Source of the DNA: Marsupella aquatica
Taxonomy: Eukaryota; Plantae; Marchantiophyta
Direction: 5' to 3'
Length of the DNA stretch: 64,000 nucleotides
NCBI GenBank assembly: GCA_973895155.1
Contig: OZ316891.1
Location: 18,811,048-18,875,047, forward strand
Positions 40,790 through 64,000 of this stretch are shown piece by piece. The translations under genes were made by a program, and so were the position numbers. The notes beneath the pieces were generated by a model. It had not been told where the DNA came from. It saw nothing but the letters and a program-made list of their open reading frames with translations, and did not search any database. Numbering within the stretch: the first letter of the stretch is position 1; each line of letters starts with the position of its first letter.

Positions 40790-42530
40790 AAGCTACATCA
40801 ATTAGTATAGTTCGTTTTAATGCTAGACATGAAACTAGGGGAAAATGGCGTTCATTCCTATATATGTGCAATTGAAAACATTGTGCAACCACAGCGTCCA
40901 ATGCTTTTGACAGAAGCGGAAAGTCCGATTCGGAAGCAATCGATGCCATTTTCATCAGAACGTGGAGCCTTGTACATAGTTCCTCTGAAAAGAAACATGC
41001 TTCGCGATGAAATTTCGAACCGGACAGTCTTAGAAGCACACTTCAAAGTACCTCTGGCCTGGTGGCATCCAGATTGCAAGTGACGGTGGTTCTCCTGATT
41101 AATGATCCCAAAAGAGTGATCGAAATCTTACTCTCCTTGATTGTCATGCGTTCACTGCATGTCATTTACGATTAGTGCTTGTAAGAATTTGTTCCGAGTT
41201 CCTTGCTCCTTCATATACATGTACCAGCTACAGAGGATATTTGGACTCTCAGCGTCCGGGAGCTAAACTCCCAATAAACGATGACTTAAAAAAACTACTA
41301 AATAGGATTCTTGCTAAACATACGCGAGTCCTTATGATCCTCCTTGTCTGCCCAGTGAAAGGCATTTTGAAGCTTAAATGGTGTCAATTGAGTCGCTTAA
41401 TTTCGAGAATTTATACGAAATAGAACATCTTGCTCTTTCCGATCAGACTGTCGCAATTCTGTAAGGGTCAAAAACAGTTGGAGTTCCATGTACTGTAAGT
41501 CTAAAAGTAATTGCCCAAGACTATGCTCTATAGGAACGCCATTGACATCAGACAGCTTCGTTTGAGGAAAACTTGTCAGTGCATCGTGGAGCCTCGATGT
41601 CCCCAGACATATTGAAATTGAATCCACCCACTAATGCGCATATGTCAGTAATCTTGGTGTCCAGAGCTGCAAGACGAACCTAGACAGTTGCCCAGTTATG
41701 AGAGTTAACGTTCTTCTCACTTCTCCAGTAAAATGTGTGCACGAACTAATTTGTTCTTTTTTGTCCTTTCAATTCACGAGAGAACTTTCCTTGAAAATTT
41801 ACTAAGAGAACTTTATTTCTCAAGATTCTCTTTTCGAATGTTAGATTCTTTGTTGATCTGCAACCGCGTTGGCCAGGAGCTTGACAGTGTTGAATATTGG
41901 AAGGACTATTTCTCCCTTTTTCGTGATGTGGTTTTATCTTTTTGCTGTTATAATGCTTTGATCAAAATATCACTCGGATGTGTATCATAGAAGCAGTAGG
42001 CACCCTCGTTATGATCCATCCACAAGTGTGATGAGTCGGGTCAGGACCTAATATTCCTACTGGATCATGATCAATCTGCCAGCCTGGAAAGTGTTTTCTC
42101 CCAAAGTGTGAACCACTGAAACTTCTCGGATTCTGAGCAACTTCAATCCTCCGTGGAGACAGAACTCCCGGTAGAGCTCGTTGCCCGTGACTTGCGGAGA
42201 CTGAACTTTTGAAGCTTTACTTCAATACAACCAGGCCAGAGATCTCCTGAGCATTCTGCAGAGCTCCCCAGACTGTCTGTTGGAGATTAAAGTATTGCCA
42301 AGCTCACTGTAAACCTCTCATGGCGATGTAACCTTGAGAGAGCAAATGAGCTGAACACGATGCCATGCGCGCAATTCACTGCCCGAAATGGTATGGCCCG
42401 TCCCTCCCCTTTGATCATCATCCGCTTCCATCATGTTGAAATCCCCCAAAACAATCCATCGGAATAATGAATCAATTCAGTTGAACAGCGTTCTCCATAA
42501 TAGCGTTTTCCATAATTCCGTCCACTCACG
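40790..42530 (-). mobile_element. Degenerate L1-like LINE ORF2 fragment (APE endonuclease to start of RT)
   Basis: Minus-strand RWIVLGDFNM (~42430-42460), IDHDP (SDH-P equivalent, ~42060) and KAPRSDENG (KAPG-DG equivalent, ~40950); many stops. Confidence 0.7.
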
Positions 42531-43970
42531 TGCCAAGTTTGGTGCATAAATTCCGAGGAAACCCAATTTTCCCAAACCCCTATGTTGGAGGCAACACTGA
42601 GCTGCCCGACTGCAGGGAAGGGCCCCTTCGGTCATCAAAGAAAGGGAGCAATCTCTCTAGGGCTTTTAACTTCTGGATGTTTTTGGCATGGCCTCTGGCT
42701 TGTTTTGTGTATGGGAGAAAACCAAAGCTGCCTTCATCTCACCCCATCGTCTCCCCCTTGAATTCCGATGTCTACCCTGGAAATGGGAAGACAAGAGCAC
42801 TGCCACCAAGCTTCTTGGGATCCTCTTTGCTCGTCGCATCTCGGAACAACAGATGGTCCGCACCCTCTCTGAAAAGCTTGAATCTAGGCTTGACAAGGTA
42901 CGCATGAACTCCGGATCCTTCATTGCCAGAGTTACACTGACGAATTCGAATTGGTTCTTTCGAGGAATTTCAATTGGTTTTTTCGAGGAATTTTTTTTAA
43001 AAAATGAGCAGCTTACAACCCTCTGCTGCGTACCTTAAGGGCTCTACAGAGGTGTAAAGAGAGTAAAGATCTGCTCCAAATGGAAAACCTAGATTTGAGC
43101 GAAGGAAACACTGACAGCTCTTGTAGCTATCTAAAATCCGAGAACCTGTCCAAAGATATCGAAAAACATAAACCGATATGAAATCCTAGGGACCCTCGAA
43201 CTAATTCTGGATTATTGAAACTTTATTCTCTTACCGATCTATTGCCAGCCCCATCCAAGATCGTCACTTGATTGGAAAGACAGATCATTCTGTAATGAGC
43301 TTTAATCCTCCTGTTCTCAAATAATATGGCATAGCCAAAGAAACAGCCTTCAGATGGACTCCTTAAAATCCCAAGCAATCCCTTGCGAATTTCTAGCAAA
43401 CTTCCATCTTATTTGAGTCTCGCTTCACAATAAATTCGATCTTCATTATTCTGTAGAGATTGACGGACCTTCATGACAGGCAACTGGAAAAGTACCGACA
43501 CCGATACTTCTAGATGCCTAATCCGACTGCCATAGCCGAACAGCCTCCTTCCCATTCGAGGAGTTGGAGAAGCACCTGTGAAAAGACGTGTAGTTTGGGT
43601 GTCTCGTCGTCAGAAAATCCGCTCATCCGACACAATAACAAAGCTACAGTTCATTGCTACAGGCTCTGGCTGTGGGCAAGCGCGACCATTGTTGGAGAAT
43701 CTTCATCCTGCGAGGAAGTATTCTGCAATCGCCAAATGCACCCAGGAAAGCCAGTTCTCTTGCTCGATCCCGTCCAACGGAGAATTCGAATGGCTGGGGG
43801 CATTGGGTGACAAACCGGCAGTAGCGCAAAGGGCCGCATGATCACATGCCAGTTGCCCCAAAGCTGGCGATAAGAAGCAGCAAGCAGAGACAACACGCCC
43901 AAGCGTGGCCCATTACTCCAAAAAGTGGGCGTCGCCATGATTGTGTCCCCAACTGAAGTCCACAAGTTTC
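42530..43970 (+). mobile_element. Degenerate L1-like LINE ORF2 3' part (late and post-RT region)
   Basis: ORF 42688-43038 (ASGLFCVWEKTKA...TKLLGI...KLESRLDK...SFIARVTLTN) matches the SGL.IN..KS / KYLG / RL..W / S..GR..L.N signature. Extent beyond 43050 is uncertain. Confidence 0.6.
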
Positions 43971-45115: not shown

Positions 45116-45550
45116 AGACCACTGAGAATAGCTAAACATTCATTGAGTATTTACTAGATGCCACCATTTTCCAGCAACATGTAAACTCATTTTAACTATT
45201 CACAATTGAGAATAGCTAAACATGTAACCACTATGTAATCTCAAATGAAAGTTAAGTTTCAGGGCCTACAATCTACAGTAGAATGAAACTATAGACTGTG
45301 ACTCTGAGGCATAACAGAAGTTGTGGGTGGAAAACAGGGATTGGGGGAGGGTGAAATTATGAAAATGATCCAACAAGCTTGCAGTCACCTCTATGTGCCT
45401 TGAAAGAACAAAACTTCTGGCTAAGAGAGTCACAAAGCTTCAAATTTGATTGACCTCAACTTAGTAGACAGAAAAAATTTATGAACTACCAAATCCATAG
45501 TCCTTTATTAACCTGTTGCCATAAAGATTGGTCACATGCCATGACCATAA

Positions 45551-45948
45551 TGTTGGAAATGAGCCTCCCTTGTAGCAAGTGTGGCTCAAGGGAGGGTGTT
45601 GGAAATGAGCCTCACTCAACTGACGAGGGATGCAGGCATCAAGGGCCTGTAGCTCAGTGGTAGAGCACTATGATGTACACTGGAGGTACTAGGTTCAATT
45701 CCTAACCGGTCCATGCTGTTGACAATTCCAGCATGGTATCAGAGCCAAAGAACAGGAGTTTCCCTTGTAGCAAGTGTGGCTCAAGGGAGGGTGTTGGAAA
45801 TGAGCCTCACTCGAACTGATGAGGGATGCAGGCATCAAGGGCCTGTAGCTCAGTGGTAGATCACTATGATGTACACTGGAGGTCCTAGGTTCAATTCCTA
45901 GCCAATCGTTCAATTCCTAGCCGGTCCATGCTGTTGACAATTCCAGCA
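45551..45948 (+). mobile_element. TRIM (miniature LTR retrotransposon) with a tRNA-like cassette in each LTR
   Basis: CATAA duplication (45546-45550 and 45949-45953). LTRs TGTTGGAA...TTCCAGCA at 45597-45733 and 45792-45948. tRNA-iMet PBS TGGTATCAGAGCC at 45734 and PPT AAGGGAGGG before each LTR. A deleted extra unit occupies 45551-45596. Confidence 0.9.
45643..45713 (+). pseudogene. tRNA-derived sequence inside the TRIM LTR (second copy ~45839-45928); anticodon unassignable
   Basis: 71 nt. Acceptor stem GGGCCTG/CCGGTCC, D arm GCTC-AGTGGTA-GAGC, T arm CTAGG-TTCAATT-CCTA(A/G). A box TAGCTCAGTGG and B box GGTTCAATTCC are intact; the anticodon stem is mispaired with a 6-nt loop. Confidence 0.8.
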
Positions 45949-48584
45949 CATAAGTCATTACAGGCTAGTGAAAACAAACTAAAAAAAAAACTTTTATATA
46001 ACAATTTGAAAAAAAGCTATGGCCATTTGCTTAATCTGGCCAAAAGCCATCATCTCTGACTTTGAAACTCATAGTATATTGTATAGTTGTAAAGGCGAAC
46101 AAGTTTAAACCCGTGAGTAGAGTTCCCGCCCTGTGGCCCATAACTTATGCAGGAGCCACAAGTCCAACAGGCAGGCATAGCGGCACTCATGCCCAGAGCG
46201 CGTTGACCCCGTTTCCCGAACTCTGAAGCGCTGACATTTTCCTCCGACTTTATCTCGTAAATCGCTGCAGAGTTCAGAGTTGTCAATAGTGAATGGCAGA
46301 TGGCCAGCTAATCCCATTAATCAAGGTTTGTCTTTCTGATGTTTTGTCCTGAGAATAAATTCCTTCTCGTGCTCACAGGAGTCACAGGCCCGAGAACAGT
46401 AACTCAGTAACAGCAGCGAGCGAAAACACAGCCACAGTTAGTAGTGCTTGCTCTCGTCCTTGGGTGAGGAAAGATTTCAGTCCCCTCTTTCATGGTCATC
46501 ATATGAAGATCTTCGGACTGTAGTAGAGTGTAACTCATTGTAATCTTTGGAGGCAAAAACCCCTATGACTGTGGTGCTGTACTGGAAAGCACGAAGCACA
46601 GACACGAGCAACCATTTTTACTAGTTTTACAGTGCAAAGCACATGATCAGTCACGCTCATTTCCTTTGATCCGTGTACTGTGCATTGCAAGTCATGCTCT
46701 TCGTCCGTCACTCTCGAGCTGCAAGCGCTGACTGAATGAATGCTGTAAGTTTCTCAGGTTTCTCTGATTGGAAGAAATGGAGGCAAATGAGCGAGATGTG
46801 ATGTATGCTTGTTGGATGTGTCCGATTCCTGAACTTTGCCTTGACATTTCAGTTTTACTCGGTTATGACGAGTGTCGGCAACTCCGCATACTTACAGAGT
46901 CCGAGAGGGCGACCGCAGAGAGAATGATCTGCCCCGATTGTCAGAAACGAAGCTGCCAAGTTCCAACCCAGAGACACGCTCAGACCTTCCAAAACTCCAG
47001 TAGCTTTCAAGTGCTCTCCTGTAGATAATAATGAATCAACAAAGTTTATAAACAAACCCTGGTGGCTGCCTACTTATTGGGCAAGGGGGTGGGGCAGCAT
47101 AGCAGAAATGGCTTCCAGGGCCCAAAACTGGGTACCGAAGCCTTATTTTTATGCTGAACCAAGGTCTCATCAATTTCTCAGAGCTCGTTTGAGACAGTGA
47201 AGAAGAGCGAACCAAGACTCAACGCATGCAGAGCCTCGTAGAACTAAATTACAAGCATCTCAGGTAGGTCACAGTCCAAAGGTTCGCCAGATGTTGGTAG
47301 CTCCCTTCTTGCGTAGGAGCGTTCATACCAAACCCCTGACTTGCCTTTACTGACGTCTACGTTGCCTCGATTTCCTGTGCCAGTTCAATTAAATGTCTTC
47401 CTGCAAGGAAATGGCTGCTGTTGAACTTGACCTGGTTCTTCTCACAGACTGAAATCCAGAGTGATTGCTTGTAGATCAAGCTGGCTGCTGAGTTCTCACA
47501 GATTCCCAAATGCTTGACGGGTTTGCTCTAGAAGAAAGCGACGAATCATCTTCTCCATGATCGATGAACTGTGCTTCAAAAGGGTCAATCTTGAATCGGA
47601 GAGCTGTGGACGGAATACTCTGCATCGGGAGGCGGCAGTAGCTTCAACATGAATAAATAGAGTAGCGGAACAAAATTTGATGAACTGTCCATCGTACTTC
47701 GTCTAGAAATCTCAATGTGGCTGTAGAAATCCTTGGAATGTTGCTGTGGAAATTGACAATTTAGAAAGAACAGCAGCTGGGATTGAATTTCTAATCCTAC
47801 GCAGTTTTAATATTACTTGACGGACCAATTTTTTACTCAAGCTGGAAGTCTTCTCGTGTTGCGACAGTGCTCTAGACTGACGACAAACTTCATCTGTCTA
47901 GTCTGCTTCGCATTCCGTTGCGTGTTTCTGACTGATGCCCCAATTTTTTGTACAAGTAAAGCATGAAAACAGGGCATTTCGCTCGGACACGACTGTATCT
48001 CCAAATTCGAATCAACGAACTCTCCCAGACATCAAGGCAAGATCTATCAAGGCCGACAAAAAAAAAGACATCCTAAGGCCAACGGCCATCCCTTAATTGA
48101 AGGTAGGTCCGATGGAAAGGCTCAAGCGGGTGCAAGATAAGTCCAAACAACGGGAAATCAGGGAAATTCAGAGAACCTCAGAACCGAGAGTGGGAACTTT
48201 GGGAAGAGATGCAGGTGACCTACGCCATCATTATGTTGCAAATTGTCCCTGTTCAAGATAATAATTATGGACTTACCCAGTCCAGCCGTGCCCACCCCGT
48301 TCAATTGTTCAATCTTCTTTGCTTGTTGTCAACACCGACAACAACGTGTTTCATAATTATCCCGCGTGTTGCCACTCTGGTACCTCCATGGCTCCATCCT
48401 TGCCTTCCCTAGAGCGATGGCTTTCCGAACTTTCCTCCGCATCTTTTGGACAAGACGCATCGACTTAGGTTTTCAGTTGAAACTCCTTGGGAACAAAAAG
48501 ATAAGTAACGTTTGAATGAACTCAAGGAAAAAGAGAAGCATTGTGCAAGTTCGAATCATTATGCACCAACAATTTGTCTCCAGT

Positions 48585-49147
48585 CACTAATAGAAAAAGA
48601 AAAGTCCACCTCACCTCCAGGACAGGTGAGAGGGGTGGGGAGGCATGCACCTTGGCTCCATGAATAGACCTGAAACCCAAAAGATACACCAAAAAAACAC
48701 CATCCTCAGGAACAGGAAAAAGTAGTGAGTTAAAAGCTAAAGCAAAAAACTGACCAAAAGAAATCAAATCCCACCTCTTTTGCACATCATACAACTCCTA
48801 CCCGTGCTCATATGTATGTTTCCTATGCCCGTTGCTGTAGTGAGGTATAGCTAGGATACCTATTATGTTTTTATAATGAGGGATCCCGCCTTTTTTCATC
48901 ATCCATCCCAATACAAAAAAGCTTCTGGAAAGATCCAGAGTTGTTGGATTCAATCGGCTGTTTTCTCTGACCATTGCTTGAGAAAATGTGCACCGTTGGT
49001 ACATATGTGCTTCTTGCTACCCCATAAATGTCCCGGCCCTACTCCCTATGAGCTGGCCCTATTTGTGTCGTGCAATGCACAGGCACATGGCTTGTTTGAC
49101 ATAATAATATGGTATAACCTGCACAGGTGCCACTATTCCTAGTAGTG
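48585..49147. mobile_element. Possible small non-autonomous CACTA element
   Basis: Ends CACTAATAGAAA ... TTCCTAGTAGTG. The 3-bp flanks AGT and TGT match only 2 of 3. Confidence 0.35.
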
Positions 49148-49526
49148 TGTCATACATAGGCCCCCTTTGGATATACTAGGGGAGAGTTGGCCCTCTCCCC
49201 TCTTTTCCTTCCCTTCATTGAGTTCCTTTGCCATTGGGATCATGTTCCTTTGCCATTGAACCCCAATTTAAGGAAAACCAAACTTTGGAAATTCCAAAAA
49301 TCACTAAATATTATTATTTTAATAAAAAGGGGGCGACATGACGCGTGGCTGTGCGTGAAACCCTGAAAATGACTGCAACGTCACATTTTAACCAATCCAA
49401 CTTGACGGGACCAAGAGACATGCTCACGCGAATAATAATAATAGAGAAATAAATCTTTGAGATCCTTTATATATGATAACCTGTATATAAGGAGTTTACA
49501 AATAGTTTCTAGAACGACAATACAAA

Positions 49527-50255
49527 TTAATCTGATCTCATGCCGACTATTATTTTGGAAGCGTCCAAAATTGGGCGTCTATTAAATTGCTCTACTAGAT
49601 ATCTATCTCCATGCCTCTGAATCACAGGGTCTTCCCATAGAGTATGATTATAATCATAATCTCTAAAAATAGATTTAACTGGCCAATCTGGATAATCTCT
49701 TCCATTGGCAATGACAAGCGGCTCACAAGAGTTTGCTAGCTTGCTAAGATACGGAATCAGCAAGTTAATCAGGAAACTGTCGTCGACCGACCCAAAATAT
49801 TTGGGCGGAAATAATGATCCAACAACAGGATCTAAACAAGCATGAAATGCATCGGATTCGATAAGCATTATATTTTGCTGCAGATACGCCTTTGTATAAA
49901 TTCCAACCTTCTCAAAACACTTCAAAAATATCCGCTTATTTGATGTCACCCAATCGCATAAGTAACAATGAGACTGATCCCAAATATACTTAAATGAGGC
50001 CATTTCCATCGCAGTCAAAATAGATGCTAAAATCTGATCTAAAAGGTTCTTCCCAAGAGAGGACCAGATCCCTACATCGAAATTCTCAAAATAGAATCTC
50101 AAGAATTTGTGAAGATGAGGCCTTGGAAAAATGTATATATTCCCAATCCGAATTCCAGTTGAGACCGCCATCAGTCGGGAATGCGGTGCAGTGTAACAGA
50201 GTAGATGCTCCATGTCTAAAACTATGAGCCCATTTTCTCTGCTGCAATGAATCTC
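49527..50255 (-). CDS. FCP1/NIF-like HAD domain exon 3 (open reading frame; candidate alternative last exon)
   Basis: Acceptor ctctacag|GAG (phase 0). Motifs LIVLDMEHLL, FPRPHLHKFL, FDVGIWSS, FKYIWDQSHC, FLK, NIMLIE. The DxDxT motif is degenerate. Confidence 0.7.
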   Translation of the reverse strand, partial: EIHCSRENGLIVLDMEHLLCYTAPHSRLMAVSTGIRIGNIYIFPRPHLHKFLRFYFENFDVGIWSSLGKNLLDQILASILTAMEMASFKYIWDQSHCYLCDWVTSNKRIFLKCFEKVGIYTKAYLQQNIMLIESDAFHACLDPVVGSLFPPKYFGSVDDSFLINLLIPYLSKLANSCEPLVIANGRDYPDWPVKSIFRDYDYNHTLWEDPVIQRHGDRYLVEQFNRRPILDASKIIVGMRSD

Positions 50256-50341
50256 CTGTAGAGAAACACAAGAAGATGCATGAGCCCGTATGAATGGAGT
50301 CATGCGAATGGTCGCGTCACATATTACAGAGACAACATCCT

Positions 50342-51049
50342 CTACACTCTGGCCATTGATAAGTGACGTCTATTGAAGTGCTTGATAAGAACTTGATCCG
50401 CATGTCTCTGCACATACAGATGCTCCCATATATCCTCGTTCAGATCCCAATCTTGATGTAGATTTCTAATCGACCAGATGGGATAATCGAACTTGTTAGC
50501 GAACGCAAGACAAAGCCCTGAATTTGATAGCTTTCATAAATATGGAATGAGGTCATCCCTCAAAAAGACATCATCCAACGATCCTTGAAACGACTTAGCG
50601 AACAATAATCCGCATACAGCTGTCTGGCATGTATGGGAAGGACAGGCATCAATCTGGATTATATTCTTTGGTCGATAATCTTGAAACATATCACGTAGTC
50701 TCTCGATAGATTTGAAGACAACAATCTTATAATTTTTCTTCACATAACCAAGATTCCAACAATGATCCCTCGTGAACACATATATCAGCTGCGACAGGTC
50801 GGTGCTCGACAACACCTCTGAAAGTATCTGATAAACCAGTTTATTGTCAAGAATAGACTAGACCATCACATCAAAATGATCATAACATAATTTTATAAGA
50901 TCATGAAGATGCAGCCTCAGAACGACACATAGAGATCCGATACGAATTCCAGGTGTCGACTTGAGCTGAGGAGTATATTTTGAAACAGAGCACAGGAAGT
51001 TTTCTAGTCCTAAAACTAGAAGTTGACGCGACCTGCTCCACTTAGACAC
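50342..51049 (-). pseudogene. FCP1/NIF-like HAD domain exon 2 with two in-frame stops
   Basis: Acceptor tttacag|GTG (phase 0). Reads through stops at ~50858 (VMV*S for VMVWS) and ~50534 (LIPYL*KL). Collinear with exon 3 (GIRIG, LIPYL.KL.NS, DYP.W, QRH.D, FNRR). Confidence 0.72.
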
Positions 51050-51174
51050 CTGTAAATGAACAATTTGATTCTCATATTATGCAATTGCAAACAACCACGC
51101 GACCGGGCGCGTCACTCCCAAAAGTTCAATTTCAATCAATTTATAAATAATAATTGATAATAAACAATAAATGT

Positions 51175-54100
51175 TTACTTATTGGACTTATCCCGGGCTT
51201 CTATAGCACGGTCTTTTTCGGCAGATAAGTATTTCATAAATTCGTCAAACTTTTCTAAATGGTCTTTATTCCCCTGATTACGAATGATCACATTTCTCCT
51301 CCAAAGATTTGTCTTATCAATATAATCTTTCTCAAGATTTTCTTGAGAGAACGTTGGAATCCCATATCCACTAAGGAGCTCGCGGAATGTCAACTTGTCA
51401 ATTGACATGTCGCATAGATATGGATATAGTTTCTTTCTAAAAAATAGGTCATCATCGAGCCCAGAATATGCATCGGGATACAGCGATGAATAGAAATCAT
51501 TAAGGCTTGTCTTATATGCAGCGTCATCGATAAGAATGACATTCTCGATGTTGTAATCTTTAATATCGGCGGCAATGTCCAAGAGACATTTGACAAATAA
51601 GGGGATGTCATTATTATTCTTCCCAATAAGTCGAGTTGATTCTTGTCCCCATATAAATTTAATACGTTTCAAAACTTCGGGTCTTAGTATCAGCCTTACA
51701 CAAGATAGAATATTCCATTTGAACATGCACGACCAGATCACAATGTCGTATAGATCTTCCACCTTCTCAAGAAATTCCATTAAATCAGGCCTTGGATAGA
51801 TAACCTTGTGCATCTGTCTCACACCCCTTGACCGAATGGGCATCCCAGGGCTGATCTTCTTTGACCAGATAAGTACCCGATTCAGATCAAAAATTACAAG
51901 TCTCTTATGAACCGGTGACTTCTTTGCCGATGGATTAGGCGCCATCTGTACGTGTGATTTTTGTGCCGCAGGGTTTGGAGAACGGACTAGAACGGTCTGT
52001 TTGTTTCCCGCCTCCGGACGATCACCAGACTTTCGGACTGGTGCCTTCGATACTTGATCAGGGGGTTTCGGGATAGGCTTCTGTAAAACATTAAGAAATG
52101 AAAATAAGTTTATAATGCGAACGGTCGCGTGACTACAAAGAGAGACACTGAAATGAAGTGTATTACCTGTACAAGACGGTCGTTCAGTGCTGGAATTCTG
52201 CCAGAAATGTCAATCATAGTAGCACGGATCCCGGTAACTAGGTTACTTATGGATGTCGGCTTGCGGAAGTCCATGTCAAATAACGACAAGACTATCTCCC
52301 TACAGAATTTCTCAATTTGATCCGCGGCAAAATTAATTTCATTTCCTTGACACAAGCACTTGGCGTATCTCAAGATAAACACACCACAACTGTGGCTGTC
52401 ACTCTGGTGAGGAATATCAATCCGATATATCCGTTCCCAACCTGAGAGATCCAAGTTGACACCAGTTCTCCAGCCAATTTCGTCGGCGTAGTACTTCCCA
52501 ACAATATCTAGCACCCCAGGATTTTGTCGATTATGAACTAGAGAATCTAGGTACTCCAGCCGTTTCTCCTTCGGATACAAGACTACCAATGACCAATGTT
52601 CTTTCACAGCATTGTGTACTGGAAAGACTTGTTTGTCGTAATCACTGATTTTTAGCGGAAACTCCTTTGTCCAAGCTGCTCTCTCCTCGTCGAAAATGGT
52701 AGGATCCATGGAGAGAAGCTCAAAATGGTGTGTTTGGAAGAATTTGACAAGGTCTGACTTTCCAACTCTATCGAGAATCAGTTCGAAAAAACTCAAATAA
52801 CCGTTAATTATATCATCGGTGAGCAACTCGCGCGGTCTCAGACACATCATATGTTTCCTCTTGAATGAGTGTTGTAAGAACTTGGTCAATTAGCTCTTCC
52901 ATATCCTTAGAAGGATCAAGGCATTGATCTATTTGACTAGCCAAATTTTCAAAAAACTGCAAAAAACAGAGATTTCAGTACGCCTTCAAATAACGTACTG
53001 AGGTTGTAGCCTAAGGGTTCTACCTCAGAAAACAGAAACAATAACAAATCAATAATAAAATAATGACGTCTATAATAGAAACTTTAAGCTTATAGCTTGC
53101 GAATGACCTTTGGATTGGGTGGATCCAGCCTTTTCGCAGCTGATCTCTTGGGTGCCTCAATCGCAACAACATCCTTCAGCCCTCCTCGAGACCGTAGTGA
53201 TCGCTCCACCAGACCAGTTTGCGAAGGTTGGAGCGATGAGGCGGGAAAACCTTCAAATGGTTATGGCATTTGATTCAAATATTCCACAATCTGGGAATCC
53301 GATTCCAAAATATCCGGTGCCACAATTTCTGCGCGAGTGACCTCTGCAATATATCGAGGTCGAGACCACGAACCCGGTCGCGTCAAGTCAGCTGTTAGTC
53401 TCTTAACGACTTGAGCCGAGTCTGGTGCCAAAAATGTTCCCAGGTCTTGCACTCGATTCTCGGAAAAGTGGACATTATTGATGATTGTCTCCATTCTGGA
53501 TGCAGTGGCAGTCTTCTCCTCGGTAATCAAAAGACTCTTCCAATATTGCAAAGCAAGGACTGCCTGGACTCGGAGCTGCTCCGATGAATATTTATTCCAA
53601 TCATCCAACGAGACCGTACTTAAGGGTGGATCATTAAATTCAAACTCTGGGCGAAGAAAATAGTCTAATATTTTCTTCTTAACTGCAACTGAGGGTGAAG
53701 AAGGCTTCTTCAAATTCAGCCTTATTTTTGGTAGACGTTGTGCCTCAGGAATAAGCGAAAGATCCTTGGCCCTCTCGGCCTCCTTCCTCGCTGCCTCCAG
53801 TCTTCCGGCTTCTTCTCTCTCCAGTCTTGCGGAATCAACCTTTTCCGCCTCCAACTTCTCCGCCTCCACCCTCTCCGGTCTTGCGGTCTTGTCCGCCATC
53901 CTCTCGGCCAGCAGCCTCTCAGCCGCCACACTCTCCGCCTTGGCCCTATTTCCCTCTGTCACTAAAAGGACTCTCGCAGCCTCCACTTTCTTAGCCTGGG
54001 CTTTCTCAGCCTCCGCGTTCTCGGCCTGGGCTTTCTCCGCCTGGGCTTTCTCAGCAAGGACTCTCGCAGCCTCCGCTTTCTCAGCCTCCGCGTTCTCGGC

Positions 54101-57100
54101 CTGGGCTTTCTTAGCCTCCGCTTTCTCAGCCTCCGCTTTCTTAGCCTGGGCTTTCTCAGCCTCCGCTTTCTCAGCCTCCGCTTTCTCAGCCTCCGCTTTC
54201 TCAGCCTGGGCTTTCTTAGCCTCCGCTTTCTCAGCCTGGGCTTTCTCAGCCTGGGCTTTCTCGGCATCCGCTTTCTCAGCCTGGGCTTTCTCAGCCTGGG
54301 CATTCTCAGCCTCGGCTTTCTCCTTCTTCTTCGCGGCAGTTGCTTTTCTAGCTGCTGCCTTTTTCTTCTTAACCTCCTTCTTTTGAAGCTCCTCTTGCCG
54401 GGCCGCCTCTTGTCGGGACGCCTCCTCCTGCCGGGCCGCCTCCTTCTTTTGAAGCTCCTCTTGCCGGGCCGCTTCCTTCTTTTGAAGCTCCTCTTGCCGG
54501 GCCGCCTCCTGCTGGGCCTCCTCCAGCCTGGCCTCCTCCTGCCGGACCGCCTCCAGCCTGGCCTCCTCCTGCCGGGCCGCCTCCTGCCAGGCCTCCTCCT
54601 GCCGGGCCGCCTCCTCTCTGGCCTCCTCCTGCCGGGCCGCCTCCTCTCCGTCCACCTCATGTCGAGGCTCCTGTGTGGCCTCTTCATCAGAGTCCTCAGC
54701 GTCCTCAGAACCCTCCATCTCCTCGCCCTCTTCATTAGCGTCCTCAGCGTCCTTCATCTCCTCTCCGTCACTCTCTTCATCTCCTCTATTGTCGGAATCT
54801 CCGATGTCGTTCTGCGTATCGGTCATCCACTTTGGATCTTGGTCATTGACATCCCCATCCGTGTCACCTTCCGCGTCACCTTCCCCCTCGCCATCCGCAT
54901 CACCATTGCTCCCTGCATCCTCAACATTGAAGCCGCAGTCGACTTGATCTGAATAAAATCAGATCATTTGATAAGAATGACTCACGCGCATATTCGCGTG
55001 AAAAGAAATGTTATGAATGTCCACGCGCATATTCGCATGACGCAATAAAAAGTAAGAGGTTTCAAAAGTAACTTACCTTGGATTGGCCCACTAGGGTACT
55101 CCATTGGTCGAATGTACAATCGATCGGAATCTTTAGAGAGTGCATACTCTTGCAATAATTGATTACAAATATTATCAGGGATATGTTGTTCGTGGAGGAC
55201 ATCCAAAACATCAGCCCTGAGAGCAGTTACGGATGGACGGTACTTCATTAATTTATCTATACATTTTTCTATACTAGCCCGTACTGGGTCAATCAATGAC
55301 AGCGTTGTATCAATTGTCGCCGTGGTGTGTTGCAAGAAACAAGACAACTCCCTATGCGTTGCCACAGGGCAGTAATATTTTACATTGGATCCAGCATCCT
55401 GTAAAAAAAGCCGAAATTAGTTCACAATATTAATTGAGAATATAATAATCTAAATAATCTTAAAATCGAAACCCCAAAATATAAATCTCAAAACTTACCA
55501 TTAAGCACTGGATCAAGTTTGTTCCCTCACCGAAGCATATAGCCCATTCCCCACATTGGACGAATTGACTAACAATACTTTCAAAGAATGGAAGTGTCTT
55601 TTCTGGGGAAGGTGTCATGAACTCGCTGCTCTCTTCAAAATTGGCTATCTTCTCAATATGATATTTGGAGACCAATTGGAACTCGAGGGCTTGTGGATCG
55701 CCCATTGTGCTGAAGGCCAAGCTGTGAAAAGCGTAGGTTACAATAAGCTTCTTCTCCTTCGGCCGCTTCTGAATATAATGGCTATCGATAGCAACGTAGT
55801 GTGTACTTCCCTAATTCCCGTTTGATTAAGTAAGACTCAATGGGAGAGGCTACAATAATAACCATATGGTGTGGTTTTGCCCCTATCTCGCTAGTAGCAC
55901 GAAATAACCCCTCATAGAATGAGCAATTTGGCGGACGCAAATCTCCCATTGATGAGGGATCAAAATAAATCAAGCTCGCAAGGTTCTTGTCTTCACGTAT
56001 GATACAGTCTGCAAACCCAACATTTTGTATATCCTGCAGGGATCGCAATTTCAGCCTCTCACCGACCGGCCGCACTAGTTGGTTTCCTTGACTATCAACT
56101 GATTTCTGTATTCCTTCCACCAACCTGTAGAATATAGGGTCGATCTCCTTCAACAAATTATCATTACTAATATTTACATTTAAGCACTTCTTCAGATAAC
56201 CACTCAACGCATCTCTCAACTGCTTCAGCACCATCTTGTCGAGCTTAAAGCGATCAATCATTCCTTTAACCCGCAATTTCTGCGCTGAATCTGTCAGACT
56301 TTTAAGCTCCGTCCGGGTGGATGTATCCCCGTTGAGTTTACTCAATAATAAAATATCAAACTCAACTTCCGTCTTCTTCTTTATACATAATTGCTCCAAA
56401 CTCATGCTGGTCGTTGACAACACTGGAGCCTCAGAGGACTTCCTCGCCTTCCTAGATTTCACTTTGATACTTCGGTTTTTGAGTATAGACAGTCTTCCGC
56501 TCAACATATATTCCGCTGCCTTTCGAAGAACCGAGTCTGAGCACCCTTGACAAGAACGGAACGTCTTCTTCAGAAGATGATAAGCACATGGATTATCCGC
56601 AATTTTGACGGCGTCCCTCTGTAAAATTCCGTTGTAAATTACAAGCTCTCCTGTCCTTGATAGTTCGTAGACCTCCATCCACTTCTTGAATATTTCGTCC
56701 TCCATTGTAAAGAGAAACGGAGCCAATTCTCCAAATTTCATCATTTTGTTCTTCCCCATTTGAGCCCATGGGCAAACAAAACTCGTAGCTCTCATAAATA
56801 CCTGAAAAACAATGGAAACATGACAATTCTAAGCTTGACGCGACCATTCGCGTGACAAAAGTTTAAACGATAATGTGATCGAAGAGGGATATTTATATAC
56901 CTTCCAATTTGGATGATGATAATGTGATCCAGGCCGCCCAAATGAGTTCCAAATATTACGACACTGTCGTACAATGGTGAGAAACTGTCCTTCTTCCATT
57001 GATGTTTGATGACAGTGGTTCAGAGCTTTCGATAATCCCATCAAATAAACATTATTGTCGTTGTTGAGCGTTGCCCAAAACATTACAGCTTCTACAGTAC

Positions 57101-58143
57101 CGCAAGTGTCTCGTACAACTTGGCTGACTTTGTCGTCCTCTCTCAGCAATTTGTACGCCATTATTGTGTGCTGGCCTCCGAGTATCCAGAAATGACTGGT
57201 CATAATGTCCTCCTCCTTTGGCGATGAATCGTAGGGCGTCTCATTGTAGTCGGGATCTCTGTCGGCCTCCGACTAAACCCACTTCACAGGGACTAAAAAG
57301 CAGCATTGCTTCTTGAACTTTATAGCCAAATGAGAGAGGAGTGAATTCTTTAGCCTATCTATGTAATCCTGATTCCACTCTCGGCACTTGATGTGGTCCG
57401 GTGCAAGATGACAACGTGATGTCTCAACAAAAAATGACTTGCTGTTAAATATATTCACAGCACTATATTCTTTGAGGAAAGAATCGAACAGAGCCCCTCC
57501 ATTCGCTGAGGTAATTACTTTCGGAAGATTCTCCGCCGAGTATACTTCAACCTTGCTCACTGGCGGGGCCTTTCCCAAGCGAAATCCCTGGTTGAAAGGA
57601 ACTCTCTGGAACTCAAGTATGTCAATAATGTATTGACAAATCAAATCTCCCGTTGATCCCTCTGGATCGGAAGGATATCCCACACTAGTAACCTTTTCCA
57701 AGGCGTGCCTTGCACCTAGAAGATCATCGATTCTGGGCTGATTGAAGGTTACATATTGCGTTCGATCCAAATAAATGCTTATTTTGTCTTCCTGCTGGTC
57801 GTCGCTAACTAGCAGAACCAATCCCTCTGTACACTCTTTAACTTTCATGTTCTTCTCAAAGAAACACCCACCCGAGAATTTTTGATCTCTCCAAAACTGT
57901 AGCTTTATCATTTCTTGCCACCACAAGACAGACAGCCCCATTGCGAACGACTATTCCAAAATCGGATATCTCAGTCGATTCAAAGAGATGGATACTCTTC
58001 GTCTCTATTGTTCTCTCTCTGATTGACTTTCCTTGATATGCAAGTATGGATGTCTCCGCGGGAGTCATTTTTGTCTTGGTTTTCTTACGAGAAGCAGCTT
58101 TAGACGAGTCTCTTTTCCGCTTTGAGGTTCCGGTAGGATCCAT
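51175..58143 (-). pseudogene. Large spliced TE-like gene (~2,100 aa): ParB/Srx-like, degenerate N4/N6 DNA methyltransferase-like, acidic and coiled-coil repeats, Ulp1/C48 protease, FCP1/NIF HAD
   Basis: Phase-compatible GT-AG exons: 58143-56901, 56801-55499, 55398-55077, 54948-53108, 52956-52167, 52080-51175. Motifs: REWNQDYIDRLKNSL...FWILGGQHT; LIYFDPS...PEKTLPFFESIVSQFVQCGEWAICFGEGT; CLRPRELLTDDIIN...HWSL...YLDSL...QSDSHSCGVF; VIFDLN...RPDL...IWS...LIDD. In-frame stops at 57273 and 53261; frameshifts near 57860, 55800 and 52890. Confidence 0.72.
53990..54650 (-). repeat. Coding minisatellites (15-bp AEKAQ/AEKAE and 21-bp EEAARQE units) predicting a long charged helix
   Basis: Repeats gctttctcagcctcc / gctttctcagcctgg and gccgggccgcctcct within ORF 53261-54826. 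Confidence 0.85.
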
Positions 58144-58217
58144 TCTGAAATAGACAAATATTGAAAGTTAAACGTTTATTATAAAATACTAACACGCGCA
58201 TGGTCGCGTCGTGCCGA

Positions 58218-58740
58218 ATTACATTTTAGGAACATTTATCCTGACCCAATCTTCTCGCTCATCTTCATCTAACCAAAACCAAAGGTTCCTAAACATGTCA
58301 AGTTCAGATCCTTCAAATCCACCCAGAATGTCCAGCGGCGGGAGAGTTCTGATGGATTCTGTAAATCTTAATGCTACACTCAGTGAAGTCAAATGCCTTC
58401 AAAGCGATTCATATCCTGGTCTATCAGTGAAGTCGTAAGCTACCAAGGTGACCGTCGCCCAAGTACTACTATAAGTAACTATGTGGCACCACTTCTTACT
58501 GACTGTTCGAATGGCGATCAAGTCCATGACCCGATTTTTAATCGCAGTATCCGACAAATTCCCAAGATAGTGGAAAAACTCTTTGACTAATGGCCAAATA
58601 TATTTCTCGACAATATCGTCCGGAAAACCGGGTATCAGGTCTTCAGCTTGACTCCATATCATGTTTCGGTTGATAACCTTTGCACGTGCAATGCGCTCCA
58701 TCATCATTTGATGATGAGATTTTCGATTCATGTCAAAGGA
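58218..58740 (-). pseudogene. F-box-like ORF 2 (one in-frame stop)
   Basis: LIPGFPDDIVEKYIWP...LIAIRTVSKKWCHIV; acceptor ctgcag at 58741. Reads through TGA at 58399 to WLDEDERED...PKM*. Confidence 0.6.
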
Positions 58741-58783
58741 CTGCAGCATAATATGGAAAAGATTAAGAACAAGAACCTATCCA

Positions 58784-59242
58784 TTAAGAACTGGGACCAC
58801 CGAGATTATGAGAAAATCTACCAAACCTTTTGATTAGGACATCTCGTTCTTCCTCATCTAAATTGTTATATTTGTTCGTAGAGAGAGACTCATTTCCGAT
58901 CGGTTTAGTAGGATTTCCTGGGAAAGCCAAATCTAATAAACTCAACTTGATTACACCCAGATGATAGGTATTCCCAACAAGGTGGCGCCATCTGCGACAC
59001 ACCGAAGATAGTCCTACAAACTCATCCAATTCCTTTATTGAGAAATTTCCTGCATTAGCCGAGGAATTAAAAGTCTCCTTGATCCGAGGCCATATCAATT
59101 CCGCGACAATGAAATTTGGAAGTCCAGGTAGTAGTGTTTCAACAAATATAGAATATCCCGCCAGTAGACCATCTTGGCTTCTGTCCAAAACATCAAATAT
59201 TGGGCATAGATATCTGAAGCTCTCCAGACCAGGTTTGCCCAT
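58784..59242 (-). CDS. F-box-like ORF 1
   Basis: LLPGLPNFIVAELIWP...LSSVCRRWRHLV; paralogous to ORF 2 (LDEEERD vs LDEDERE). The 5' end is uncertain. Confidence 0.55.
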   Translation of the reverse strand: MGKPGLESFRYLCPIFDVLDRSQDGLLAGYSIFVETLLPGLPNFIVAELIWPRIKETFNSSANAGNFSIKELDEFVGLSSVCRRWRHLVGNTYHLGVIKLSLLDLAFPGNPTKPIGNESLSTNKYNNLDEEERDVLIKRFGRFSHNLGGPSS

Positions 59243-59365
59243 GACTCTTTTCAGCCAAATGATATATCCCAGAGATTATTTTCTACAAATCAGAATGTAT
59301 AAACAATTCTTTGAGAGACTGATTTTTTCGAGTCACAACATGATAAATCATAAATGTTGCTTCGT

Positions 59366-61380
59366 CCTCTAACAGAACCAGTCAATGAGAGAGCTACCTC
59401 AGACGCGAATGGTCGCGTCAACTGCCCCTAAATGAAACCTTACCTCCTCTAACAGAACTAGTCAATGAGAGATCTACCTCAGATGCGACTAGTCGCGTCA
59501 ACTGGTCCTAAAAGGAACTTTACCTCCTCTAACAGAACCAGTTAATGAGAGAGCTACCTAAGACGCGACTGGTCGCGTCACCTGAACCTAAACAACTATA
59601 TCCACTGAACCTTCCTTGTGGAGATTTGGATATGGTACGCGCTCAGTAAATCTATCCAGTTTCCTTCTCACACGCGACTGGTCGCATCAACTGGTCCTAA
59701 AAGGAACCTTACCTCCTATAACAGAACCAGTCAATGAGAGAGCTATCTCAGACGCGATTGGTCGCGTCACCTGAACCTAAACAACTATATCCAGTGAACC
59801 TTCATTGTGGAGATTTGGATATGGTACGCGCTCAGTAAATCTATCCAGTTTCCTTCTCACACGCGATTGGTTGCGTCAACTAGTCCTAAAAGGAACCTTA
59901 CCTCCTCTAACAGAACCAGTCAATGAGAGAGCTACCTCAGACGCGACTGGTCGCGTCAACTGGTCCTAAAAGGAACCTTACCTCCTCTAACAGAACCAGT
60001 CAATGAGAGAGCTACCTCAGACGCGATTGGTCGCGTCAACTGAACCTAAACAACTATATTCACTGAACCTTCCTTGTGGACATTTGGATATGGTACGCGC
60101 TTAGTAAATCTATCATGTTTCCTTCTGACACGCGACTGGTCGCGTCAACTGGTCCTAAAAGGAACCTTACCTCCTCTAACAGAACCAGTCAATGAGGGAG
60201 CTACCGCAGACGCGACTGGTCGCGTCAACTGGTCCTAAAAGGAACCTTACCTCCTCTAACAGAACCAGTCAATGAGAGAGCTACCTCAGACGCGACTGGT
60301 CGCGTCAACTGAACCTAAACAACTATATTCACTGAACCTTCCTTGTGGACATTTGGATATGGTACGCGCTTAGTAAATCTATCATGTTTCCTTCTGACAC
60401 GCGACTGGTCGCGTCAACTGGTCCTAAAAGGAACCTTACCTCCTTTAACAGAACCAGTCAATGAGGGAGCTACCGCAGACGCGACTGGTCGCGTCAACTG
60501 AACCTAAAAGGAACCTTACCTCCTCTAACAGAACTAGTCAATGAGAGAGCTATCTCAGACGTGACTGGTTGCGTCAACTGAACCTAAACAACTATATCCA
60601 CTGAACCTTCCTTGTGGAGATTTGGATATGGTACGCGCTCAGTAAATCTATCCTGTTTCCTTCTGACACGTGACTGGTCGCGTCAACTGGTCCTAAAAGG
60701 AACCTTACCTCCTCTAACAAAACCAGTCAATGAGAGAGCTACCTGACGCGACTGGTCGCGTCAACTGAACCTAAACAACTATATCCACTAAACCTTCCTT
60801 GTGGAGATTTGGATATGGTACGCGCTCAGTAAATCTATCCAGTTTCCTTCTGACACGAGACTGGTCGTGTCAACTGGTCCTAAAAGGAACCTTACCTCCT
60901 CTAACAGAACCAGTCAATGAGAGAGCTACCTCAGACGTGACTGGTCTCGTCAACTGAACCTAAAAGGAACCTTACCTCCTCTAACAGAACCAGTCAATGA
61001 GAGAGCTATCTCAGACATGACTGGTCGCGTCAACTGAACCTAAACAACTATATCCACTGAACCTTCCTTGTGGAGATTTGGATATGATACGCGCTTAGTA
61101 AATCTATCATGTTTCCTTCTGACACGCGACTGGTCGCGTCAACTGGTCCTAAAAGGAACCTTACCTCCTCTAACAGAACCAGTCAATGAGATAGCTACTT
61201 GACGCGACTGGTCGCGTCAACTGAACCTAAACAACTATATCCACTGAACCTTCCTTGTGGAGATTTGGATATGGTACGCGCTCAGTAAATCTATCCAGTT
61301 TCCTTCTCACACGCGACTGGTCGCGTCAACTGGTCCTAAAAGGAACCTCACAATATTTTCACGCGACTGGTCGCGTCAAC
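59366..61380. repeat. Higher-order tandem array of 80-bp (A, about 14) and ~110-bp (B, about 8) units, each carrying the palindrome GACGCGAC-TG-GTCGCGTC
   Basis: Order approximately AAAB AB AAB AAB AAB AB AAB AB plus a terminal palindrome at ~61360; about 23 palindromes. Confidence 0.92.
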
Positions 61381-62339
61381 AGCTCAAACAACTTTTGGAC
61401 AATAGGATAATACAGTGATACAACTGTGATTACTGACTCGTACGGACAAGGAAATCCGAGTAAGCATGATTTCATTCATTTGTATTCATTCATTTGTATT
61501 CATTCATGAACTTTACAATAATTCAGATGTTTGAGCTCTGTCATTGTGAAACTATTATATATCAAAAGTTTAGAGAATGATCCAGCTAAGATGATTCAAT
61601 TTAGCAGTCTACTGGTTGTATTCGTCAATTAAAGGATTCAGTGTAATGAGATTCATATAACATGAGAGTTTATATGATTAAATTCACAGCGTGCAAGTTT
61701 GTAATGACTTACTTAAGACGATTCAGGTTGTATTTTAATTAGTGAGTTTGTATGATTCACACATATTTGAGTTTACAAACAAACCGCATTATGAAAACTC
61801 AGCTTAACAATCAAGAGAAATTTTAGCAAACCACAATCAACACCAGCAGAAAATGTAGAAATTGCACCTGAATTCTGAAAAATTGATGTACTCGTCTGAG
61901 AGATTGACGTCCAAGCACTTGAAGACCTTGTTGCGGCATTCCAGAAAGTAAATATAAGATTGAAGATATTAATATGCTAAGCAACAACAACACAGCTTCT
62001 ATACTTCTATACATAGAGCTTCGCTGCCACCAATTGAATAACATGTGCTTAATGCTAAGGAGCTCATTATGTCGAGTTAAAAAGACTCTTTCAGAAGTAC
62101 AATCAAAGCTGTGGATAGGCAAACTGAGCATGAATAAAAGCGCACTAAACCTGAAGATTCAAAGAGGTGAAACAAACCTGAATGCTGATGGAAGGAGCTG
62201 AAACAAGCTGCCAAAAAGTAGTTCGAGCTGCTGAAACACATTGATCGAGTTGATATGAGCTTAAAATTGGCTGACACGAGCTGATACAAGCACTCCCAAA
62301 AAGCTAGCTGCAATGAACTAGCAAACTAGAAGTGAATAC

Positions 62340-62545
62340 GAGCTGTAAATGCGAGCTGCAATGCGCCAACGAGCTCCTAGTCGAAACGATGGACAACTAC
62401 TAAGAGCTGCAACGCGCCGTCAAGCACCTGACCACAACGAACGAGCTGCAATGCGCCAACGAGCTCCTGGTTGAAACGATGGACAACTACTAAGAGCTGC
62501 AACGCGCCGACAAGCACCTGACCACAATGAACGAGCTGCAACGAC
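62340..62545. repeat. ~91-bp tandem repeat near the putative 5' end of the element
   Basis: gagctgcaatgcgccaacgagctcc...aaacgatggacaactactaagagctgcaacgcgcc.caagcacctgaccacaa occurs twice, plus scattered gagctg motifs. Confidence 0.75.
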
Positions 62546-62884
62546 AAAAATGAAATCCAGGGCAGGAGCGAGAGCGAGAGCGACGAGAGCAGGCGCGCGA
62601 AAGTCTAGGGAGCGAGAAACAACAACAATGAACAGTGAACTCGAGACCGCGGGCGCCGACACTAAGGAAGGACTAATTAGGGTATTGTTTTAGCATAACC
62701 CTAATAACAGCCTAGCGACAAGAAGGTTCCAGATGATCTCCGTACAGTCCACCATCGACTGAACAAACTATGCAATCGTGAGAAAAAGATTACCGGATTC
62801 CTTTTGATTTGCCGTACTAAAGGAGATTTCTATTTGATCGCCAATTTGAAATTTAAACCGGTAATTATGCAACTGCGAAAGATT

Positions 62885-63125
62885 GTTAGTGGGGACCCCC
62901 GGATCCGGATCCGGATCCGTATCTTCACTATATCTGCCAATTCAAATCCAAAATGTGAACGAACGACAACTTTCTCACGATCGTTCCATCACGTAGTGGA
63001 GGCGAATTTCAAAATCATTCCATTTTGGTAGTGGAGACCGTCGGATCCGGATCCGTACTCCACTCTCTATCTTGCCAATTCAAACCCAAACTCTAAACAA
63101 CGTAAAACGATTCTCACGGTCGGGG
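62885..63125. repeat. ~140-bp imperfect duplication with GGATCC repeats and ttctcacg motifs
   Basis: tagtgg.gacc...ggatccggatccgta...tgccaattcaaa...ttctcacg at ~62887 and ~63029. Confidence 0.65.
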
Positions 63126-64000
63126 AGAACCGATATTCAAAATCAATCCTGTACAATGATTCTCACGACTGGAGACTCAACCAATTTTCAAAATCAAAAT
63201 CGAGTCCAGATGAACACATCCTCCATGGAGTCAATAGACTGATCTCATTGCTCACGGATCATTCTTCATTTTCAGTTTCTCCTGACCAGGATACTAGCTG
63301 GGCTCTCAGCGGAGGCTGATCCAAGGCACATTTGAGGTGGAGCAGATTGGATCATTCGACTATTCCTGCCGGAGGCGGAGCTCATTCAAGCAACGCTGGC
63401 GCAGTTCTTGTTGTATCACCTTCAATCTTGGGGAGAGCACATCCGATCAAGCGGGAGAGTTGCGACGAAGCGAGACGACAAACATTTAGAACCTCCATAG
63501 TCTGCCTCATTCATCGAAGCATTCTAGCGGACCAACAAAGAGCGGCTATTCTGAAATCACAGTCTGGTCGAGGATTTTGATCTTGATACGATCAACAAGT
63601 TATCATTCTCTGGTGGTGGGATTCGATCACGATACTCAAGGAAATTGGAGTTCGAAGGAGGAGGCTTAGTTGGCTGGGACGAGGAGGCTACGCTGGAAGG
63701 AAGAGGCTTGGCTAGGAGGAGGGTTTCCGCCAACATCGAAGGGTTGCCGCCAACATTGCTGAGACCACACGCAACTGAATAACTTGTAAGTATCAATCAG
63801 CATTAATTCCGCAATGAAGGAGGAGAGTAGTTGCCTTAAATCACGCATTCAATGCATGAATTGAGTCAATGAAGTTATGGTCCAATTTCTCACTCCAATT
63901 TTGATCAATCCATTTTTCAAGTCCAATACAGAAGCAATGTATCAGAAGTACTAGTAGAGGATCCGAATGAATTCTCTAGTCTAAAATTGTATGGCGTACG

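Follow-up and report, generated by a model that had tools for sequence, protein, structure and literature searches.

The right-hand part of a 64,000-nucleotide stretch of Marsupella aquatica DNA (contig OZ316891.1, positions 18,811,048–18,875,047; hereafter the window, numbered from its first letter) belongs to a large repeated DNA element, likely a plant transposon, that spans 14.7 kb or more and of which it forms one arm. It belongs to a real, young, high-copy element family, and its minus-strand genes are predicted to encode a polyprotein with a ParB/Srx fold, within an element marked by copies of an 18-bp palindrome. In the reading that we favour, and on which our confidence is evenly divided, this is the accessory arm of a high-copy, likely young giant DNA transposon whose predicted ParB-fold polyprotein would dimerize on the palindromes of the element and shield its copies from silencing. 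The accessory half of a giant DNA transposon, already suggested in the initial annotation of this DNA, is what we infer as the best account of the locus.

Sequencing depth separates the element sharply from its surroundings. In run X1, the flank is represented by a contig (45,922–49,216) at depth 16.6 with 0 differences from the window, whereas single element contigs have depths of 434–476 and those reaching 63,997 have depths of 369–544; element contigs thus lie at ~22–33 times the flank, a ratio that, by the tool's own warning, is not an exact copy number. Runs X2 and X3 (the latter read to 57%) show the same flank-to-element step. Because the high depth persists up to 63,997, the element extends beyond the window end, which sets its size at 14.7 kb or more; the initial annotation had closed it at 63.2 kb, but it is longer and continues to 64,000.

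The left end (feature 49252..49260, unstranded, exact base uncertain) was placed at 49,252–49,259 from contig ends and divergence points. The single-copy X1 contig stops at 49216 and copies of the flanking repeat diverge past 49245, with 34 X1 contigs of this repeat departing from the window sequence after 49,245. In organism C, where the element is covered at low depth and 46,048–48,607 is without cover, two contigs pass from the element into other DNA at 49,259, five of the seven preceding bases being common. The shared end in different flanks concerns the left end only, and the second flank is seen only in these two organism C contigs. The position is blurred further by a direct repeat of 15 bp (49,222–49,236 and 49,244–49,258). 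High copy number, a sharp left boundary and a different flank in organism C bear out the mobile nature originally proposed for the locus; as was also stated there, no transposase is visible in the window.

The left-end region reads GCCATTGAACCCC. The closest CACTA lies at 49302, ~45 bp inside, and a CACTA-type end was rejected because there is no 5'-CAC at the left end. Helitrons end at their 3' side in a hairpin followed by CTRR, and such an end was also rejected: 49252–49260 contains no CTRR, and a GC-rich hairpin followed by CTAG (minus strand, 49175–49200) belongs to the flanking repeat in which it lies. That repeat (~48970–49245) is a separate, diverged family and forms the host site of the element insertion. 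A CA at 49254–49255 is present in the window and also at the organism C junction; with the end known only to 49252–49259, the element may start with 5'-CA, as Kyakuja and CMCT-clade elements do. Termini of the form 5'-CA..TG-3' are described for the KDZ/CMCT clade (PMC12730594), and short terminal direct repeats for Replitrons (PMC10288648).

At its other side, the element continues as non-coding DNA that is open at the window end (61386..64000, plus strand), characterized by its X1 depth (369–544), by repeats and by no Pfam match. Within it, 62352–63800 (+) holds 90-bp and 142-bp duplications, GA repeats and a telo-box-like word, and splice acceptor and donor signals lie near 63275–63290 and 63787 (+), an arrangement suggestive of a 5' leader belonging to a divergently oriented gene of the element. 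A six-frame Pfam scan of 61.4–64 kb and 38–49.4 kb returned nothing except one weak unrelated match.

The pattern of substitutions points to silencing of the copy in the window. We counted 56 differences between the window and the majority of copies, made up of all 40 best-supported differences of one set and 16 of 40 of another (A>G or T>C, outside the array described below). Losses of C account for 46 of them, and 37 of these 46 fall in CG or CHG, contexts whose background share is 37%. C-to-T decay at CG and CHG is the mark of land-plant silencing, and the window copy appears to decay as a methylated land-plant transposon would be expected to. The observed/expected ratio of CpG is 0.85–0.93 in the element versus 0.53–0.56 in flank and host DNA; with the element still CpG-rich, its family must be either young or shielded in the past. 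Most copies seem to be intact.

The coding part was initially described as tightly packed long open reading frames (ORFs), all on the minus strand between 49.5 and 59.3 kb, joined by five phase-compatible introns into one frame of ~2,100 amino acids. The strand assignment holds apart from a few long plus-strand frames over a low-complexity exon, and the joined frame is recovered: six exons from 58,143 to 51,175 (−), connected by five in-phase GT–AG introns (56900–56802, 55498–55399, 55076–54949, 53107–52957 and 52166–52081), encode 2,133 amino acids once three indels private to the window copy are discounted. Other copies, represented by high-depth contigs, differ from the window at these three indels and at the stops at 57,275, 53,263, 50,859 and 50,536, and both N-terminal frameshifts are bridged by natural homologues (P0006 and P0038).

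Exon 1 (56901..58143) encodes a basic start resembling a nuclear localization signal, a beta-rich domain and the ParB/Srx-fold domain, as delineated by homologues and structure search; in the window copy it carries one frameshift and one stop. Intron 1 (56802..56900), with a palindrome at 56838, has a position common to distant homologues: P0023 and P0025 read straight across it, and in many others the open frame ends at the same W–K junction. Exon 2 (55499..56801), for which homologues reach 56% and 47% and ESM Atlas scores are 0.80–0.81, encodes a helical region followed by a region that resembles beta-class amino-methyltransferases (MTases) by a weak profile match and lacks their catalytic motif; its one frameshift in the window copy is the one bridged by P0038. 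Intron 2 (55399..55498) is GT–AG and in phase, exon 3 (55077..55398) is read from sequence as the end of the MTase-like region, and intron 3 (54949..55076), recognized by its splice signals, contains palindromes at 54984 and 55023. Exon 4 (53108..54948) comprises an acidic tract, five-residue repeats of Ala, Glu, Lys and Arg, predicted to form a coiled coil, and a C-terminal part; it has one stop in the window copy (53263). Intron 4 (52957..53107) has in-phase splice signals, a weak donor and no palindrome; no homologue bridges it, and it may instead separate two genes, one with the ParB half and the other with the Ulp1 half. Exon 5 (52167..52956) carries the Ulp1/C48 SUMO-protease domain, with one frameshift in the window copy (52890); intron 5 (52081..52166), supported by splice signals and contigs, contains a palindrome at 52115 that is perfect in most other copies; and exon 6 (51175..52080) encodes a linker and the first of three NIF/HAD domains.

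On either side of this frame lie further minus-strand coding segments. Downstream, NIF1 is followed by an AT-rich gap (51050..51174) that has a palindrome at 51097 and a splice acceptor and yielded no in-phase donor; it precedes NIF/HAD domain 2 (50348..51049; two stops in the window copy, both differing in other copies). A predicted phase-0 intron with a palindrome at 50302 (50256..50347) follows, its in-phase splice signals lying between NIF2 and NIF3, although the frame of NIF3 is also open through it; NIF/HAD domain 3 occupies 49527..50255. Upstream, an F-box-like ORF (58784..59275) is followed by a second F-box-like exon (58223..58740, one stop in the window copy) and by a predicted intron with in-phase splice signals and a palindrome at 58194 (58145..58222), through which splicing may join F-box 2 to the polyprotein. 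At 58880–58881, within the first F-box ORF, the window copy has a deletion: in each of the four runs, other copies contain additional DNA at this point. The three inter-ORF gaps of the initial annotation do contain palindromes as it stated, but they have splice signals, in phase in two of three, and are probably introns rather than gaps.

The identification of a ParB domain, for which structure prediction had been proposed at the outset, was upheld by it. The model of the ParB exon has a predicted local distance difference test score (pLDDT) of 67, with a core at 75–91, and structure search matched it to PadC (Z 8.6, root mean squared deviation 2.9, 99 aligned residues) and KorB (Z 8.3, 2.7, 94). 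The first nine matches are all of ParB/Srx type, the next having a Z of 3.7, and the top Foldseek hits are also ParB (E 3.5e-3), so that a ParB/Srx nucleotide-binding fold in exon 1 is supported by the predicted structure. A conserved beta-rich region precedes it (57870–57570, minus strand; best structural match Z 3.7). Among 1.84 billion representatives, phmmer found 27 matches to the exon, 26 of them plausible homologues; P0021, a 3,247-residue repeat protein, was left out as spurious. These homologues preserve the ParB domain and the position of intron 1 at identities down to ~25%. Ten homologue clusters that were looked up originate from Logan, ENA or JGI and, except for the spurious one, have no informative names; longer, annotated homologues were not found, which the tool's own note treats as weak evidence. 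G-G-Q-H-T and a later L-S-x-x-L-N are invariant across the eight closer sequences.

The remaining domains are recognizable to differing degrees. The Ulp1 domain, as initially called, is clear (Pfam C48, E 4.7e-17; alignment to SENP2, E 3.3e-12), and its His–Asp–Cys triad and oxyanion Gln, aligned to SENP2, are intact. The HAD assignment is likewise supported, with Pfam NIF matches at E 1.1e-9 (domain 1), 2.8e-8 (domain 2) and 5.5e-14 (domain 3) and a match of domain 1 to UBLCP1 (E 0.01); the phosphatase activity attached to it is not, DxDxT being absent from all three, in which motif I reads DLNRV, GLENF and DMEHL, respectively. The three are paralogues, 22–36% identical (NIF2 versus NIF3, 36%). 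The two F-box regions do resemble one another (33% identity over 87 residues), but both remain below the Pfam cut-off (17.6 and 15.2 bits versus 20.5; E 0.004 and 0.02), and the second reaches E 0.005, again below the cut-off, in a separate scan.

The palindrome ACGCG-N6-CGCGT ties these genes to their surroundings. Scanning the window yielded 19 exact sites and 27 at one mismatch or fewer, all within 49.3–61.5 kb; outside this interval, the rest of the 64-kb window contains none of either kind, and at two mismatches or fewer the counts are 33 inside and 2 outside. Its presence in the upstream array, the introns, the inter-ORF gaps and the 3' flank is therefore as first described. Between 49,300 and 59,300 there are 8 sites (one mismatch or fewer), compared with a mean of 0.05–0.07 and a maximum of 1 in 180 simulated Markov sequences. 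All 7 gene-region palindromes fall within predicted introns or intron-like gaps, segments that together account for 9.3% of this region (p ~6e-8); 6 of 8 such segments carry one, the nearest site lying 34–49 nt before the acceptor, and one additional site with two mismatches lies inside exon 4. Two overlapping, unstranded palindromes found by the pattern scan, with one and two mismatches, are subterminal (49331..49356). Upstream of the genes, repeat analysis defines an unstranded tandem array of 80- and 109-bp units (59365..61385) that holds 23 palindromes with the consensus GACGCGA-N4-TCGCGTC, mostly 80 or 109 bp apart, in a higher-order unit of 269 bp; dispersed sites conserve the arms while the spacer (4–6 bp) varies. 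A high-depth X2 contig has an extra 17-nt copy at 59281 that is missing from the window, and the palindrome is thus gained or lost from copy to copy.

Taken together with the predicted proteins, the 18-bp, two-fold symmetric, CpG-rich palindrome would be a cis-acting binding site under selection, because a sequence of this kind would decay fast in methylated DNA and yet it persists in six unrelated introns or gaps, close to the left end and throughout an array of 23 copies. Two-fold symmetry suggests that the binder is dimeric. The candidate is the ParB polyprotein, acting as a dimer, since ParB-family proteins are dimeric palindrome binders and this is the only DNA-associated fold in the window. 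Ulp1, tethered at the palindromes, would deSUMOylate silencing factors; the altered NIF, MTase-like and F-box domains would serve as binding decoys or adaptors; and the gene of the mobilizing enzyme would lie beyond 64,000, its transcription probably leading away from the array.

Several observations weigh against this account. Box II of the ParB domain reads GGQHT, the arginine of GxxR being replaced by Thr or Ser in the window as in all 17 homologues that extend over this position; this arginine is required for nucleotide binding, and its loss abolishes binding in the folds tested (PMC12704722). We do not claim a canonical sliding clamp driven by cytidine triphosphate. After the ParB domain, no helix-turn-helix (HTH) or other DNA-binding fold was recognized in a helical region whose model is poor (pLDDT 44). 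Continuity between the ParB and Ulp1 halves depends on one weak splice donor, and the window contains no transposase, right end or target-site duplication. The window copy was evidently methylated despite its own palindromes; several hundred further differences lie outside the 56 that were counted, and contig depth is, as said, an imprecise guide to copy number.

The strongest competitor, to which we give a minority but real chance, has the palindromes bound by a transposase or a TnpA/VANC-like factor whose gene lies outside the window, with the ParB polyprotein as cargo in another role. Transposases and TnpA are themselves sequence-specific activators at clustered motifs (bioRxiv 10.64898/2026.08.24.746577), the element extends past 64,000, two palindromes are subterminal, and the polyprotein shows no recognized DNA-binding fold. 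TnpA binding in the same source is, however, limited to termini, whereas here the motif is concentrated in an internal array and in introns, and the palindrome, at one mismatch or fewer, is absent from 61.4–64 kb.

It is unlikely that the palindrome is instead a pair of host transcription-factor sites driving expression of the element. CGCG occurs in each arm, as it does in the CAMTA box, and conserved arms around a variable spacer of 4–6 bp, in an array upstream of genes, would suit such a role. Against it, 52 kb of host genes and other repeats contain no site at one mismatch or fewer, and a fixed inverted spacing in all copies fits one dimeric binder.

A direct enzymatic role is less probable still: the ParB–MTase module would be an active enzyme that places N4-methylcytosine (4mC) or N6-methyladenine on the palindrome and so blocks 5-methylcytosine deposition by the host. 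Compared with a profile of 40 beta-class MTases (the mod region of P1 was excluded as a seed because it is interrupted), the MTase-like region has its motifs (IV...X, I) in register; column shuffling attained its score of 22.7 in 1 of 100 trials and block shuffling in 0 of 100. A 4mC enzyme is in use in a liverwort (bioRxiv 10.1101/2021.02.12.428880), and ParB can activate a DNA-modifying enzyme (PMC13229309). The match is nevertheless weak, at an HH probability of 3% and with an Ulp1 control scoring 20.0; motif IV reads FDPS, LDCS and LDST in the three sequences, without the catalytic (D/N/S)PP(Y/F); and searches of Pfam, PHROG and NCBIfam and a phage tblastn gave no match. The methyltransferase and DNA-modification role of the initial annotation accordingly loses its footing as an active enzyme.

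The virus-derived origin that was also first considered fares poorly. An endogenous virus, or a giant long terminal repeat (LTR) retrotransposon with intron-containing antisense cargo, is highly improbable. ParB–MTase fusions are phage-type, and the part beyond the window might carry pol or capsid genes. Yet scans of viral and prokaryotic genomes for relatives gave 0 of 8, 0 of 27 and 0 of 2, the spliceosomal introns lie at a conserved position, and no LTR, polypurine tract, gag–pol or capsid was found within the window, the left end having no LTR, polypurine tract or poly(A). The palindrome pattern gave two single matches in viral contigs and none in prokaryotic genomes. A metagenome scan reduced 39 pattern matches to two loci, of which L001 was dropped as a chance match on the opposite strand of a bacterial gene; L002, an AT-rich contig, holds a 1.2-kb degenerate fragment with a degenerate Box II motif at 493–552 and is probably a decayed relative. 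A host multigene cluster amplified by segmental duplication, suggested by the lack of a visible mobility gene in the window, is scarcely credible given the sharp end inside another repeat, the different flank in organism C, the CG/CHG decay and the uniform depth over 14.7 kb.

Among known systems, the closest parallels are the VANDAL and KAONASHI Mutator-like elements without terminal inverted repeats (non-TIR MULEs) of Arabidopsis. Their target-site duplication is ~9 bp. Like the element described here, they have accessory genes, theirs standing next to the transposase, and Ulp1 cargo (PMC5735166, PMC13317346), the latter carried by related non-TIR MULEs (PMC13317346). VANC21 binds motifs in introns and in intergenic and terminal regions, amplified as tandem repeats (PMC5735166), and the distribution of the palindrome over introns, gaps and a tandem array is the same. 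By contrast, VANC motifs are 8–9 bp long and asymmetric (the term 'palindrom' occurs 0 times in PMC5735166), whereas the motif here is an 18-bp CpG-rich palindrome; the protein has a ParB fold, and neither a MuDR transposase nor a target-site duplication is seen in the window. Pfam scans of the ORFs named no VANC-type family, no direct comparison with VANC having been made. On anatomical grounds, our best reading is that the element would work like VANDAL/VANC with a different type of motif and a different protein.

Bacterial ParB–parS, KorB and Noc share with it the ParB/Srx fold and a repeated palindromic site of similar length, and phage fusions of ParB with N6/N4-MTases, which are common (PMC12704722), share an MTase-like region downstream of ParB. 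Unlike these, the polyprotein has GQHT/S in place of GxxR in Box II, no recognized HTH, introns, and a fusion to Ulp1 and NIF domains, and no prokaryotic sequence relatives were found in the prokaryotic and phage scans. Eukaryotic N6A-MTases derived from phage ParB–terminase loci occur in haptophytes, chlorophytes and chytrids (PMC4738411); those have an FHA fold or a ParB-type HTH, and the available part of that source describes no plant transposon with a ParB nucleotide-binding fold. Phage ParB–MTase fusions and algal ParB-linked MTases offer a possible origin of the module. In CACTA/EnSpm elements, as proposed here, an element-encoded factor (TnpA) acts on clustered cognate motifs, but those motifs are terminal, and the left end here does not read CAC. 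KDZ/Zisupton elements and TET-carrying fungal DNA transposons are also large and carry chromatin- or ubiquitin-related cargo: an F-box is present in one Zisupton isoform (PMC12062965), and epigenetic enzymes are known as transposon cargo (PMC12730594), a source in which the term ParB occurs 0 times. Pfam identified no KDZ transposase, CxC or TET domain within the window. The claim that this domain combination is unknown from described families agrees with our literature search, which found no plant transposon with a ParB fold; repeat libraries and most subscription papers lay outside its scope, so that a library entry may exist. Our verdict is that the novelty lies in transposon-encoded self-regulation with an unexpected ParB module.

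Elsewhere in the window, a short repeat of high copy number lies at ~45500–46040. It has an A-rich loose end and tRNA-like boxes, the latter in two tandem copies, and is probably a short interspersed element derived from a tRNA; ARAGORN found no tRNA in it. A degenerate minus-strand frame at ~42500–43100, with a long read-through and no Pfam match, resembles by eye the endonuclease of a long interspersed element. Host genes include an intron-rich plus-strand gene at ~1500–7800 with a GYF_2 domain (E 1.8e-8) and RRM-like exons, which resembles Tat-SF1/HTATSF1, and a TauE/SafE sulfite-exporter exon at 27810–28907 on the minus strand (E 4.2e-11).

This locus documents a prokaryote-type ParB module within a family of eukaryotic mobile elements. 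Few systems (VANC and TnpA) are known in which transposons counter silencing in a sequence-specific way, and in these the kilobase-scale spread of the effect is an open question. Bacterial proteins with the fold predicted for the candidate factor bind palindromes and spread along DNA, and the putative target motif here can be recognized by eye. The system could also yield a programmable anti-silencing tool for plant transgenes. A bolder and rather doubtful extension is that the element represents a new class of giant plant DNA transposon that recruited a bacterial or phage ParB module for parS-like self-recognition, in which loading at the array and intronic sites, spreading along the element, and delivery of Ulp1 and decoys would keep the element unsilenced. 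If true, this would be a eukaryotic ParB spreading system and an independent invention of VANC-like anti-silencing.

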